A stretch of 64,000 bases of DNA from an uncultured Ectothiorhodospiraceae bacterium (GTDB taxonomy: Bacteria; Pseudomonadota; Gammaproteobacteria; S012-40): contig CALZHW010000003.1 of the NCBI GenBank assembly GCA_945787125.1, positions 4,094 to 68,093 of the forward strand. The letters run 5' to 3'. The notes under the pieces are model-generated. The model had not been told where the DNA came from. It was given only the letters and a program-made list of their open reading frames with translations, and did not search any database. The translations under genes were made by a program, and so were the position numbers. Shown in pieces: positions 36,453-41,866 of this stretch; the stretch's first letter is position 1, and the number at the start of each line of letters is the position of its first letter.

Positions 36453-37034
36453 ATGAAAAAGTCCACAATTGCAGCTGCCGTTGGTGCTTCATTGGCATTG
36501 TTAGCCAGTAGTGCAATAGCTGATACGTCAAACGACGCTTCTGCGAAAGTCTTCGTCCAAGTAAGTCCTAATGTGTCAGTTATATTTACAGATGCACATG
36601 TTGACTTAGGAACAGTGCAAACGGGTAAGTTTGGCGGTACGGCAACTTTCCGTGTTGACGCTAACGAAGAAGCTGTCATTCTTGGTGTTACTGCGACTAA
36701 TCTCTATAAAGGTGATGTCTGTGAGGCTGAGCCTGAAGTCGCACCTTTACCTGTCAATGGAGACGGCGCATTAGTACAGCCAGAACGCGCAAACCCATTT
36801 AACAGTTTCAGCCCATTGCTTCCTTGGGTGGCTGAAGCTAACTATTTGGACTGCGCGGGCATGCGCTCGACTGACGTTCCATATGAAAGCGCTCAAAATG
36901 GACACTTCAGTCAAGACGTAGACGTTAATGTGAGCTGGGATCAACCAGATCCTGAGCAACCTCAAGGTGAGTATAGTGGTTTCATCATTTTACACACCAT
37001 GTTGCTAGGTCAACCAGCTCTCGCATCTAACTAG
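36453..37034 (+). CDS. Secreted pilin-like subunit, likely SCPU/Csu-type (archaic chaperone-usher pilus major subunit)
   Basis: Signal peptide. The C-terminal motif GEYSGFIILHTML resembles the G.Y.d.l.v.v C-terminus of Csu/SCPU pilins. Paralog of ORF 37147. Strong RBS aaggag. Confidence 0.4.
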   Translation: MKKSTIAAAVGASLALLASSAIADTSNDASAKVFVQVSPNVSVIFTDAHVDLGTVQTGKFGGTATFRVDANEEAVILGVTATNLYKGDVCEAEPEVAPLPVNGDGALVQPERANPFNSFSPLLPWVAEANYLDCAGMRSTDVPYESAQNGHFSQDVDVNVSWDQPDPEQPQGEYSGFIILHTMLLGQPALASN

Positions 37035-37081
37035 CCTCAGTAAAGTTTAATTAATAAAAACTGAACTTTACTGTCATGATG

Positions 37082-37108
37082 GGGCGGCCGCAATAGTCGC
37101 CCCTTTTC
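37082..37108 (+). terminator. Intra-operon rho-independent hairpin after the first pilin gene (attenuator)
   Basis: ggggcg-gccgcaatagt-cgcccc followed by tttt, preceded by a second hairpin cagtaaagtt..aactttactg (37039..37074). Confidence 0.5.
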
Positions 37109-37146
37109 AGCTTCACGTCTAATAAAAATAAGGAGAACACTAGATC

Positions 37147-38646: not shown

Positions 38647-38680
38647 CAAGTTAAAAATATAATACAGGTAATTTCGTTTA

Positions 38681-41600
38681 ATGCTTTTCAGGATAAACGA
38701 TATTTTTCAAGATCAATTATCAGGTAAAACTTTACCTGAGTTGGGGCAATTTTATGTCTTTTTGTTGATTCGAATTCACTTATATTTTAATTGCCCCTTC
38801 AGCCGTATTGTTCGGCAACAATTAAAGTATTTACAAGGCATATCAATTTGTACTTTGGCGCTGTTAGTTGGCGGGTTAGCCTGTGTATTATTTTCTCCAC
38901 AATGTTACAGCTCGGCTGATGAAACGCCTTTTGCACCCTCAAAATTTACGATTGACGAATCCGAAGTTGTCACCGAAATTGCTGCGCTAATTGTACGTGG
39001 TGCTTCCAGGCGTGAAAGAATTGAGGTCTTAGATCTGGATATCATCCAAACTGATGCTGGACAACGTTTGATTCCACTATTGAGAATACTAAAAATACTA
39101 GAAGCAAAAGGCAGTGTAGAGGACGATATTGTCAGTTTATCTATTGAACCTGGCGTGACAATTATACTGGATTTGAGGCAGGAAACGCTTCAGCTGGGTA
39201 ACCAGTCAACACGTTTGTTAGTGAAAACGGGCATATCGGATGTGACCGGTAAGGGTGAAGTTTATGTTCACGACCTACTGCTTAATATCGCTTTTGACTT
39301 AAGTGAAATTTGGAGTGACAATGAATATGCTTACCGCATTCAAACGAAGAAAAGACTTCGAGTTTTCACCAATCGTAAGCGGAATCACAAACGCTCCTTG
39401 CTCGCAATAAGACACGTTTTCTATAACCTGCCTGAAACTGAACCTGTGCAATTACCAAAAAGTTCACGCCAGTTTATCTCGTTTATTGCAACTGGTACCC
39501 GAATCGATAATCGTGACAGTCAGCCAGAAAGAGAAACTATTATCACACCTGATGTTTCTGTATATGGTCAAATATTGGGGGGGAACTATTATGTCCGTCT
39601 AACAGAGAATATCAATACTAAAGATTCGAAAATGCCTAGTCCAGCGTTATGGCTGGACAAAGGATTGTGGATATCGAAGAGAGATAACTTCGCTATCCGA
39701 GCTGGGGATACGAGCCAGGGTTTAGGGGGTTTGGTTGTGCCTTCTGCCAGTTTCACTGGCGCAGTGGCTCGTGGTATTTTCGGCACCAAAAATAAAAAAA
39801 CAAGCAATCATTTTCTTAGTAGCAGCCAATTTTCCTTTCTTTCTGAATCAAACTTTAATGGTTACGCAGCATTGGGCTCTACCGTCGAGTTTTATGTCAA
39901 CAATCGTTTGGTTGATTCACAAGTTGTTGATGACACACAAGGAGCACCGCCTGGTCAAGGCAAGTATGATTTTGTTGGGATTGGTTTATTGGGCCGTTCT
40001 GTAAACGACATTAAGATCGTTGTAATTGAACCCGACGGTACCGTCAACGAAATGAAAAAAACAATTGCAGGCTCACCCAATTTGCTGCCTGCTGGCCAAT
40101 TAGCATTCTCTGCAGGTGCAGGTACCAAACGGCGCGAGCTTAATGGAGAGATGCAAGTCGAAGGTTCGTTTGGAGGCATTGGATTTTTTTACGGCTTAAG
40201 CAAAAACTTAACTTTAGGTTTCACTGCCGCCAACCAAAAAAATTTCTTCAATGCCGAGGATTCAAGCACTGCCCGTCTCCCGCAGCGATATTATTTTGGA
40301 CAATCAACCACCTTCAGAATATTTGACAGCTTAGTGCTGAGTAGTGAGATTGCAAGCAATTCTATTCCCGGCACAACCAATCGACCTTTTGCACGCGATT
40401 TATCCGCTCATTACTGGTTCGATCAAGGTGTTTTTTCCTTATACGATTTTGCCTATGACGATGGTTATTCCCATGGTAATATTTATCTGGGTGGTCGCTC
40501 CGGCAGAGCCGCATTTAATCAGTGGCGCTTGAGCAAGCGCTTGCAACTAAATACCACCTTTGCCATGATTACTAACAGCGATGATACTCAGCAAGAAAAT
40601 TACTTTATAACTTCATTCAGTGGCCCTTCCATATTCCCTCGCACAATGTTTTCTATGCGTATGGATCGACTGGGCAAACAACAGACTGAAGTCAATGAAC
40701 AACTAAAAACACAACATACATCGCATTCCACAGAGAGTATGTACTCTGTAAATTTAGAAAGTAGACCACACCAAAGAGTCAATTTAACGGGTGAATATGC
40801 CTGGGGTGATGCAATCAATCCAGCAGCCGAAGGTCAGTTATGGTATGGGATTAGCGTGCCTCAAGTCGGCTCGGTACTTTCATATGGACTACGCCTTCGA
40901 TCTAAATTTTTTCTAATGTATAATAGCTCGCTGGATATCACCTATCGGGATAATTTAGTGGGTACGGAAAACATTGAATTGAATCTGAACCGGATGCCGC
41001 GACGAAAATATTCGCCTGGACTGGCGCTGAGGCATCGTTATGACATAAACAGAGATTCTCGTAGTACGCGTCTCGATCTTGAATTACCGCTTGATAATCG
41101 GCGGCGTCACATCATAGGAGCCGGAGCAGAATATAGTGACATAACCAAGAACTTTCGCTTCAACATATTTATCAATTTTCGTGAACTTTTTTTCCAGGAT
41201 AAAGCGCGTTTCAAACGAGTTAATCCTGATTGGCGAATTCATCCTGAATCGGGCGGTATCAAGGGTTTTGTTTATCTTGATGCAAATGCTAATGGCCACT
41301 ATGAGGCTGGCGAGCCCGGTGTGCCTGATGTTGAAGTCATGGTTGCTGGAAGACGGAAAGCGATAACATCTAGTGATGGGTATTTCTTATTCAATCGACG
41401 CGCAGATGAAGACGAAGTTTTGGTTAACTTAAACGACAAAGAACTGTCCGCGATTTATACTCCAACTCAAGGTCTGCAGCGTGCGGAATGGGAAGAGTAT
41501 ATATTTACTCGGGTTAATCTGGGAGTTTCGGTGCTGAGTTCTATTTCCGGTAAAGTTGCCATTTGGGACGGCAACACTTTTGTTCGTGGACTCCCGGGAG

Positions 41601-41866
41601 CAGTGGTTTTATTGCAAAAACGTTCGGATAGCAGTGTACAAAAGCAATCGATTTCCGATTCAAAAGGAGTATACTATTTAGGTGAAGTTAAACCCGGTGA
41701 TTATTATATTGAATTAGATCCAACGACGGTGTCACCTATTTATCAAATCATCAATAATAAAACTGAATTAAAAGTACAGGCTAGCCTGGAGATGGAGGAT
41801 CAGGAAGGAATTGATTTTCGAGTTTCACCTAAATTCAACGAGCCGCAGTTAAGTAAAAGCCAGTGA
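38681..41866 (+). CDS. Large outer-membrane usher-like protein with two C-terminal SdrD-B/CarboxypepD_reg-like beta-sandwich domains. The true start is probably internal.
   Basis: 1061 aa. A likely signal peptide (..ISICTLALLVGGLACVLFSPQCYSSA) sits about 55 codons into the ORF. Long beta-rich central region. The C-terminal domains DANANGHYEAGEPGVPDVEVMVAGRRKAITSSDGYFLF and GKVAIWDGNTFVRGLPGAVVLL...GVYYLGEVKPGDYYIEL match the SdrD-B/prealbumin-like fold. Confidence 0.35.
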   Translation: MLFRINDIFQDQLSGKTLPELGQFYVFLLIRIHLYFNCPFSRIVRQQLKYLQGISICTLALLVGGLACVLFSPQCYSSADETPFAPSKFTIDESEVVTEIAALIVRGASRRERIEVLDLDIIQTDAGQRLIPLLRILKILEAKGSVEDDIVSLSIEPGVTIILDLRQETLQLGNQSTRLLVKTGISDVTGKGEVYVHDLLLNIAFDLSEIWSDNEYAYRIQTKKRLRVFTNRKRNHKRSLLAIRHVFYNLPETEPVQLPKSSRQFISFIATGTRIDNRDSQPERETIITPDVSVYGQILGGNYYVRLTENINTKDSKMPSPALWLDKGLWISKRDNFAIRAGDTSQGLGGLVVPSASFTGAVARGIFGTKNKKTSNHFLSSSQFSFLSESNFNGYAALGSTVEFYVNNRLVDSQVVDDTQGAPPGQGKYDFVGIGLLGRSVNDIKIVVIEPDGTVNEMKKTIAGSPNLLPAGQLAFSAGAGTKRRELNGEMQVEGSFGGIGFFYGLSKNLTLGFTAANQKNFFNAEDSSTARLPQRYYFGQSTTFRIFDSLVLSSEIASNSIPGTTNRPFARDLSAHYWFDQGVFSLYDFAYDDGYSHGNIYLGGRSGRAAFNQWRLSKRLQLNTTFAMITNSDDTQQENYFITSFSGPSIFPRTMFSMRMDRLGKQQTEVNEQLKTQHTSHSTESMYSVNLESRPHQRVNLTGEYAWGDAINPAAEGQLWYGISVPQVGSVLSYGLRLRSKFFLMYNSSLDITYRDNLVGTENIELNLNRMPRRKYSPGLALRHRYDINRDSRSTRLDLELPLDNRRRHIIGAGAEYSDITKNFRFNIFINFRELFFQDKARFKRVNPDWRIHPESGGIKGFVYLDANANGHYEAGEPGVPDVEVMVAGRRKAITSSDGYFLFNRRADEDEVLVNLNDKELSAIYTPTQGLQRAEWEEYIFTRVNLGVSVLSSISGKVAIWDGNTFVRGLPGAVVLLQKRSDSSVQKQSISDSKGVYYLGEVKPGDYYIELDPTTVSPIYQIINNKTELKVQASLEMEDQEGIDFRVSPKFNEPQLSKSQ

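Follow-up and report, generated by a model that had tools for sequence, protein, structure and literature searches.

Within the 64,000-nucleotide (nt) stretch of contig CALZHW010000003.1 analysed here (the window), which derives from an uncultured Ectothiorhodospiraceae bacterium, four co-directional open reading frames (ORFs) occupy positions 36453-41866 of the + strand. They had been delimited in an initial annotation made from the sequence alone, and the ORF list confirms their coordinates. The first two genes encode a candidate major fibre subunit of 193 amino acids (aa) (subunit 1; 36453-37034, +) and its paralogue, a candidate minor subunit of 191 aa (subunit 2; 37147-37722, +). They are followed by a gene for a periplasmic, chaperone-like protein of 272 aa with two immunoglobulin (Ig)-like domains (37828-38646, +) and by a gene for an usher homologue (38681-41866, +; 1061 aa as called, with an uncertain true start). 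Read by eye, the first three proteins carry Sec-type signal peptides (..SSAIA/D, ..IAIA/Q and ..SASA/S), and the large protein has a hydrophobic stretch at residues 54-78 ending ..YSSA/D. No tip-adhesin gene comes after the usher gene, as previously noted: no + strand gene follows, and the neighbour at 42108-45272 is transcribed convergently. The order subunit, hairpin, subunit, periplasmic chaperone-like protein and usher had been read as that of a chaperone-usher-type operon, and our analysis supports this. We conclude, with a probability of roughly 0.78, that the locus is a chaperone-usher operon of a previously unannotated, deeply divergent lineage.

Annotation resources gave little indication of this. 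Every name supplied by the source records for the operon proteins and their relatives is 'hypothetical protein', searches of the four proteins against Pfam and NCBIfam yielded no usher, PapD or pilin call above cut-off, and a literature search found no description of this chaperone-usher family. The cyanobacterial tubular pilus (PMC12397347) is a different system. The evidence below comes from predicted structures, profile-profile comparisons and gene order, including the structural searches and barrel-topology prediction that the initial annotation had proposed for the third and fourth proteins.

Both its fold and its sequence profile identify the large protein as an usher homologue. Its AlphaFold2 model was built from 11 homologues (mean predicted local distance difference test (pLDDT) 75.8), and in a Foldseek search of the PDB, FimD and PapC led all matches: the 18 top matches were all one or the other, with E = 9e-25 to 7e-11 and up to ~1000 aligned columns. 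In the model, an N-terminal periplasmic domain (residues 99-221; 38975-39343, +; delimited from model secondary structure) is followed by a helix, six strands (268-367), a six-strand sandwich (389-463), ~20 strand segments up to residue 846 and two beta-sandwiches (859-949 and 953-1050). The predicted topology is thus N-terminal domain, six strands, plug, barrel, first C-terminal domain (CTD1) and second C-terminal domain (CTD2). Insertion of the plug after strand 6 is a signature of ushers, known from the PapC and FimD structures. Here the plug domain (39845-40069, +) follows six barrel strands, aligns to FimD 300-365 and carries the motif G.A..GS.VE...N.R.V....V......PPG.G.Y.F....L......I.I...EPDG, whose FimD counterpart in the hhalign alignment is G.A.G.A.V.I.QNG...VPPGPF.I...E.DG.

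Sequence profiles point the same way. We compared a 68-sequence usher-family profile by hhalign with reference proteins taken from annotated records, using reversed and column-shuffled target profiles as controls (≤0.6% probability, score ≤20.5). The profile matched CsuD and two other σ ushers at 98.2% (E = 3.4e-14, 588 columns, score 124) and six Escherichia coli K-12 ushers at 97.1% (E = 5.5e-11, 562 columns, score 102). Curated models detected the protein poorly: the Pfam Usher model (PF00577) reached 22.5 bits (E = 5.9e-5; cut-off 27.1 bits) on residues 442-512, overlapping the plug region only, and matched 14 of 47 divergent usher-family representatives at E ≤ 0.01 (best E = 8.7e-9). NCBIfam returned nothing usable for the protein, and its N-terminal domain has no sequence similarity to PapC_N by Pfam. 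Weak Cu_amine_oxidN1 matches occur somewhere in the protein in 4/11 and 8/47 usher-family members. Profile hidden Markov models (HMMs) of the family, from 11 and from 68 sequences, found only SdrD and NOMO among PDB sequences, both on the C-terminal domains.

A rival view is that the protein is a different outer-membrane barrel, such as a TonB-dependent or SusC-like transporter with a CarboxypepD_reg domain or an LptD- or MtrB-like protein, with the small proteins beside it being unrelated surface or periplasmic proteins. SusC-type transporters commonly have a CarboxypepD_reg domain at their N-terminus, and BtuB-type transporters, LptD and an Mtr complex chain do appear in the Foldseek results at E = 2e-7 to 1e-4, the Mtr chain being the first non-usher barrel (E = 2e-7) and TonB-dependent transporters following at E = 1e-5 or weaker. 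However, ushers lead these by 17 orders of magnitude where the structures are full-length and by no fewer than 4 where only the barrel is present, the transthyretin-like domains lie at the C-terminus and correspond in alignment to CTD1 and CTD2 of FimD, Pfam finds no TonB-plug or TonB_dep_Rec match in the large protein, and its sequence profile matches ushers at 97-98%. We regard a non-usher barrel as extremely improbable; the outcome that the initial annotation had named as refuting, a TonB-dependent receptor, did not materialize, with profiles and fold both pointing to an usher.

The same annotation had described the protein as an oversized usher with two added SdrD-B-like domains foreign to canonical ushers. 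The domains are present where it put them, with SdrD_B at residues 862-907 (E = 1.1e-9, above cut-off) and CarboxypepD_reg at 969-1011 (E = 3.5e-5, below cut-off), and the model and hhalign delimit them as CTD1 (residues 859-949; 41255-41527, +) and CTD2 (residues 953-1050; 41537-41830, +; a CarboxypepD_reg/SpaA-like match). Their foreignness is not supported: residues 861-949 align with FimD 715-790 and residues 953-1018 with FimD 792-853, which is the PapC_C region. Because the two align in order with CTD1 and CTD2 of FimD, they are not extra domains, and sequence alignment identifies them as the normal usher pair in divergent form. As a control, the bona fide usher EcpC has a weak CarboxypepD_reg match on its C-terminal domain (E = 1.2e-4), which indicates that ushers normally have a C-terminal domain of the transthyretin-like type. 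What seemed an oddity, adhesin-like domains on an usher, is explained by a regular CTD1 and CTD2. The sole clear difference in CTD1 is an 8-residue insertion relative to FimD that forms the loop D-A-N-A-N-G-H-Y-E-A-G-E-P-G, in which D867 and E878 are invariant and N869 is ≥90% conserved across 68 sequences. This D-x-N-x-N-G...E loop is the part recognised by the SdrD_B model; its counterpart in the B domains of SdrD is a Ca2+-binding loop.

The usher is indeed longer than FimD- and CsuD-type ushers, by 180-230 aa as called, with the exact excess subject to the uncertain start (1061 aa versus 878 for FimD, 865 for HtrE, 841 for EcpC, 869 for CfaC and 832 for CsuD), and most of its relatives measure 1000-1075 aa. 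Relative to FimD, ~80 additional residues lie before the first aligned barrel strand, in a longer leader and a helical linker joining the N-terminal domain to the barrel, ~45 in barrel loops, ~20 in the C-terminal domains and ~20 in a C-terminal tail. Since it is spread over leader, linker, barrel loops and tail, the extra length does not correspond to two appended domains. The true start is uncertain because the N-terminal leader (MLFRIND.FQD...) is kept in the three closest relatives and absent from more distant ones.

The 272-aa protein has a predicted fold like that of pilus chaperones. Its AlphaFold2 model, from 43 homologues, has a pLDDT of 91.4 and shows two all-beta Ig-like domains after a signal helix. 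The structural check thus returned a two-Ig-domain chaperone fold, with Foldseek matches to CfaA, CupB2, EcpB, CsuC, YadV, FimC, Caf1M, PapD, DraB, SafB and FaeE at E = 1e-9 to 3e-7. By sequence the signal is weak, yet it exceeds background: hhalign gave 60% (E = 8.5e-5, 121 columns) against pooled chaperones of the alternate pathway (CfaA type plus EcpB/E), for which the yardstick of classical chaperones against the same pooled set is 37% and controls reach ≤0.6%. Single sets gave 33% for Ecp, 10% for σ and 0.6% for classical chaperones. Pfam and NCBIfam found no PapD_N or PapD_C in the protein and only fn3_5, below cut-off, and the chaperone-family profile HMM found nothing among PDB sequences.

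In the hhalign alignment, the family consensus FNPKEFTLpPKSSRxVRF...REYWGAIEFtPL falls on the classical motif TPPLFxL...LRI...DRES (DRESLFW). A candidate G1 donor strand, M147-K-F-E-V-L-T-A-L-L-I-P-I-Y, corresponds to the family consensus MxFxVxTxLLIPIYG with its alternation conserved and, in a low-confidence alignment, falls on CfaA L114, V116, I118 and Y120, the donor-strand residues defined in PMC4133393. Four basic residues, R63, K92, R109 and R200, are invariant in the family.

Subunits 1 and 2 are paralogues (28% identity, E = 3e-12), and subunit 2 matches the subunit-family HMM at E = 6e-57. No Pfam domain was found in any of 59 subunit relatives, and SCPU, Fimbrial or CS1 pilin matches at E ≤ 1 were absent from the 43 of these that were scanned. 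The G-x-Y-x-G motifs noted at the C-termini are present on both proteins, as GEYSGFIIL and GVYGGYVQL, the former as the C-terminal strand of subunit 1, which also has a conserved alternating N-terminal strand (AKVFVQVSPNVSV). Across the family, the N-terminal strand reads AHVxVxVxPNVAV, with V33, V35, V37 and N40 at least 90% conserved, and the C-terminus reads PQGEYSGxVxL, with G172, Y174 and G176 invariant in 43 members. The N-terminal strand followed by proline resembles, as a resemblance only, the CfaB donor strand ITVTASVDPVIDL. These terminal-strand features would fit donor-strand subunits, and we infer that the two proteins represent a new family of probable pilins.

Similarity to known pilins is slight. 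In a PDB search with the subunit-family profile, only CfaB (the CFA/I major pilin) was recovered, in four entries and over the last ~50 residues (single-copy E = 0.27), and single-sequence searches with subunit 2 and a distant subunit from a relative produced chance-level matches only. Trimmed subunits matched class 5 pilins by hhalign at E = 0.0036 (score 24.4, versus ≤13.8 for controls), for which classical against class 5 pilins scored 13.5. An apparent 78% match to classical pilins was discarded, having been driven by signal peptides; it fell to 0.6% after trimming.

The same subunits raise the question of whether the machinery makes a pilus at all, or instead a capsule- or coat-like layer, as in Yersinia Caf1 or the Myxococcus spore coat, or a secreted protein that does not polymerise. 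There is no tip adhesin, small paralogous subunits number only one to three, and by sequence their family has no relation to the pilins that form rods. The conserved N-terminal alternating strand and C-terminal strand nevertheless suggest a donor-strand polymer; Caf1-type material is one too, and these features would fit either fibre morphology. We consider a product other than a pilus unlikely, and favour fibre assembly.

Family members are found only in metagenome-assembled genomes and share a common gene order. A word-indexed search returned 11 usher relatives, and an exhaustive HMM scan of 1.84 billion representatives returned ~90 full-length usher-family representatives among its best 150 matches, the remainder of which were SdrD_B-repeat proteins. 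Every locus with upstream flank (L001-L010 and L013) has the order one to three subunit paralogues, chaperone-like gene, usher-like gene, and a subunit-family gene always adjoins the chaperone-like and usher-like genes. The carriers comprise Ectothiorhodospiraceae, Chromatiales, Motiliproteus, Colwellia, Candidatus Tenderia, unclassified Gammaproteobacteria, one member of the Omnitrophica and one labelled Clostridia. L001 has an additional subunit gene downstream of its operon and, on the same contig of its metagenome-assembled genome (MAG), a second and distant cluster (13525-18018, - strand) of 229, 277 and 941 aa, in which the family HMMs match the usher-like protein (E = 7e-28) and the chaperone-like protein (E = 3e-8) and give no match to the subunit. 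Since the two terminal patterns persist in that distant subunit (TFDVQATIPKAVSV ... GTYTGQLTVTATL), the superfamily extends beyond the present family. Two loci are broken: in L009 (4853-8810), the chaperone-like and usher-like genes are split into several ORFs, and in L013 (6001-9158), the usher is in two pieces. Pseudogenes would explain both cases, as would errors of assembly or frameshift.

The untranslated regions of the operon contain candidate regulatory structures. An AT-rich, non-coding leader of ~460 base pairs (bp) (35990-36452, +; from sequence reading) lies directly 5' of the operon, in a region with a GC content of 0.325 (35500-36499). AAGGAG at 36440-36445 lies 7 nt 5' of the subunit 1 ATG, and AAAAATAAGGAGAA forms a ribosome-binding context common to both subunit genes. 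No promoter was located for the operon, promoter-like matches being no commoner than in shuffles (16 versus 15.9), and a search of 35000-36500 for a fim-like invertible promoter found only short, imperfect AT-rich repeats, none of them convincing.

The 112-nt spacer between the subunit genes forms two stem-loops (-28.9 kcal/mol, z = -3.67), with a stability that none of 200 shuffles equalled. The first (37038-37073, +) is AT-rich with ~14 bp by RNA fold. The second (37081-37107, +) has a GC-rich 8-bp stem (GGGGCGGC-7 nt-GTCGCCCC) and is followed by TTTT; this is the hairpin that had been placed after the first subunit gene, and a strict terminator scan missed it because it is followed by only four T. 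Four relatives (L004, L005, L006 and L010) have a strong stem-loop at the equivalent site after the first subunit gene, and in L009 it sits between the second and third subunit genes instead. The second stem-loop is a candidate for either a partial terminator or a hairpin that stabilises the mRNA, and in either role it would maintain an excess of subunit 1. The recurring position supports a role in subunit stoichiometry, which is suggested by analogy with other pilus operons. A further stem-loop of 10 bp (CCAGTGACAT-AACA-ATGTCACTGG; 41860-41883, +) overlaps the usher stop codon and probably marks the end of the operon transcript, with no T-tract 3' of it. An Rfam scan of 34500-42300 matched a tRNA alone and placed no known RNA family over the hairpins.

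Taken together, the four proteins would be expected to work by the familiar pathway. Subunit 1, whose excess the downstream hairpin would ensure, and subunit 2 would be exported by Sec, and the two-Ig-domain chaperone would capture them in the periplasm by lending a strand, with M147-F149-V151...I159 as the candidate. It would then hand them to the ~1000-aa outer-membrane usher, which has the canonical layout: the N-terminal domain precedes a barrel whose plug comes after strand 6, and CTD1 and CTD2 follow. There, the N-terminal strand of each incoming subunit (AHVxVxVxPNVAV) would displace the chaperone strand in the preceding subunit, so that the fibre would grow by strand replacement and be pushed out through the barrel. 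The operon has no gene for a two-domain tip adhesin, so the fibre is probably simple, polymerised from one or two kinds of subunit.

Several observations weigh against this interpretation. Except for SdrD_B on the usher CTD1, no operon protein reaches a curated cut-off in Pfam or NCBIfam, and all carriers are MAGs, mostly of marine or sediment Gammaproteobacteria. The usher model is of medium confidence (pLDDT 75.8 from 11 sequences) and has ~26 strand segments, not exactly 24. For the 272-aa protein, TM-scores to pilus chaperones are only 0.4-0.58, and the top Foldseek match is a Gram-positive WxL-interacting protein (WxLIP) from Enterococcus (9i25_C, E = 5.4e-11, TM 0.48-0.51). The Arg8/Lys112 cleft pair of classical chaperones has no clear counterpart in it, R33 is not conserved and proline stands where CfaA has R125. 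Lastly, the likeness of the subunits to known pilins is weak and confined to their last ~35-50 residues (9% probability).

The genes and repeats around the operon were also surveyed. Between the convergent usher and surface-protein genes lies a nested palindromic element (41885-42098) with perfect 24-nt inverted arms (CTAGGAGCCTGTCCGAGAATGGAA) 166 nt apart, the whole of which forms a single long hairpin (DNA fold z = -14.3). Related arms are present at 32338-32361 and, back to back, at 49331-49374, with 0 expected by chance; together these look like a family of miniature inverted-repeat transposable elements (MITEs) or of repetitive extragenic palindromic (REP)-like repeats. The convergent gene (42108-45272, - strand) encodes a 1054-aa secreted protein with three Calx-beta domains (E = 2.9e-51), Chlamydia-PMP-type repeats, an acidic low-complexity region and a hydrophobic C-terminal tail with basic residues (GSMDWFLFAAIFLLIGCRYRMRFN), whose sequence appears to resemble a GlyGly-CTERM-type sorting signal. 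It is a second surface or adhesin-type gene, unrelated to the operon it adjoins. Beyond it are genes for a Cache/HAMP/HD-GYP-type protein (45881-47332, +) and a GGDEF-EAL protein (47479-49152, -), both of cyclic-di-GMP signalling and possibly linked in regulation to the fibre operon or the adhesin.

Upstream, a tRNA-Leu(CAG) gene (34931-35017) lies 1.4 kb from the operon, a perfect 12-nt tandem duplication (AAAAACCTACGT x2) occupies 35099-35122, and precomputed Pfam calls for the identical contig L003 show a toxin-antitoxin run (MazE-like, ParE/Phd and Xre-RES) at ~28770-31212; the operon may lie in a variable, island-like region. Two adjacent ORFs of 154 and 196 aa (33623-34087 and 34216-34806, +) have no Pfam match, and ...GIGSDSGGGW... 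in the second recalls the active-site serine motif of trypsin-like or alpha-lytic proteases; together they may represent a secreted protease that is split or very divergent. In the AT-rich region between tRNA and operon, a 58-aa ORF (MDYRQTLDLDKLMEEEF...; 35813-35989, - strand) stands beside a stretch (35560-35760) whose - strand translation, made by eye, is reminiscent of part of an Xre-type helix-turn-helix protein. The two may be remnants of a toxin-antitoxin pair.

The division of chaperone-usher systems into six clades reportedly dates from 2007 and draws almost wholly on pathogens and cultured Proteobacteria. In the family described here, only the usher keeps detectable similarity to known systems, and the chaperone and pilins go unrecognised by current annotation models. 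Surveys that rely on PF00577, PapD or SCPU models consequently miss part of the diversity of this pathway in environmental bacteria. The family offers an outgroup for reconstructing the co-evolution of usher, chaperone and donor-strand subunit, as well as a new pilin family for structural work, and it extends a well-studied pathway into sequence space that lacked annotation while its mechanism is expected to be the familiar one.

To place the family, we compared usher profiles of the known groups with each other. Classical and σ ushers matched at 99.9% (score 299) and class 5 and Ecp ushers at 98.5% (score 124.5), with no detectable hhalign signal between these two groups. The new ushers join the classical/σ group, slightly nearer to σ (score 124 versus 102 for classical). 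By these profile scores, their distance to that group is about that between class 5 and Ecp and much beyond that between classical and σ. The chaperone leans weakly to the alternate group and the pilins faintly to class 5. The placement is provisional: it comes from profile scores, not from a tree, and each target profile contains only 1-7 sequences. We see it as an even prospect that the family is a separate major clade outside α, β, γ, κ, π and σ, with its own pilin and chaperone families and an usher branching below the classical-σ split. Such a clade would have split off early and would link PF00577-type with alternate-type systems; to date its members come only from uncultured bacteria of marine and sediment settings. 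Its SdrD-type CTD1 loop, possibly Ca2+-binding, could make subunit handover calcium-dependent.

Among known systems, the archaic σ clade, typified by Acinetobacter baumannii Csu (CsuA/B-A-B-C-D-E), is the one to which the initial annotation had assigned the operon. The three σ reference operons (L026 csu, L027 and L028) share its order of subunits, chaperone and usher, σ ushers are marginally its closest usher profile and CsuC is among the fold matches of the chaperone. Ordinary membership is nonetheless improbable. SCPU subunits are a defining feature of the clade, and SCPU (PF05229) was found in 0 of 43 subunit relatives at E ≤ 1, so the family is most probably not a σ member; nor is the likening of the subunits to SCPU/Csu pilins supported, at 0.6% by hhalign against seven σ pilins. 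No SCPU tip protein follows the usher, neither PapD_N nor PapD_C is detected and PF00577 stays below cut-off. The chaperone matches σ chaperones at 10%, while classical and σ chaperones match at 96.8%, and the usher scores (124 against σ, versus 299 between σ and classical) argue for a position outside both groups. The window usher is also ~230 aa longer than CsuD.

With the classical systems (type 1 Fim and P pili), the operon shares the domain order of the usher, the hallmark motif of the plug and a two-Ig-domain chaperone in which FNPKEFTL...VRF...REY stands for TPPLFxL...LRI...DRES. It differs in having no PapC_N, PapC_C or PapD matches, no recognisable Arg8/Lys112, an inserted SdrD-type loop in CTD1 and no FimH- or PapG-type adhesin gene, and its subunits are unrelated in sequence to FimA, FimI, FimF, FimG and YadN (0.6%). 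Another likeness is to WxLIP (DUF916 + DUF3324), the top structural match of the 272-aa protein and itself a two-domain Ig-like protein that binds a partner protein (PMC10599100). Its hosts lack an outer membrane and its clusters contain WxL-domain proteins, whereas the partners here are an outer-membrane usher and small secreted subunits. Pfam scans that covered the four operon proteins, 43 subunit-family members and a set of neighbouring proteins detected no WxL domain, and we rejected a WxL cluster.

The alternate systems (class 5 CFA/I and CS1, of the α clade, and Ecp) are those that both the chaperone (60% for the pooled set, 33% for Ecp alone) and the subunits match best by sequence. CfaB is the sole PDB profile match of the subunits, with GNYSGVVSLV against the family GEYSGxVxL, and the C-terminal domain of EcpC is CarboxypepD_reg-like too. 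In contrast, hhalign detects no relation between the usher and the CfaC (0.1%) or EcpC (0.6%) profiles, and the window protein lacks Usher_TcfC, TcfC and CooC_C, all three of which CfaC matches. Class 5 operons are ordered chaperone, major subunit, usher and tip, and the window has no CfaE-type tip adhesin. The family thus belongs to no other curated family and is best described as a separate deep lineage of chaperone-usher systems.

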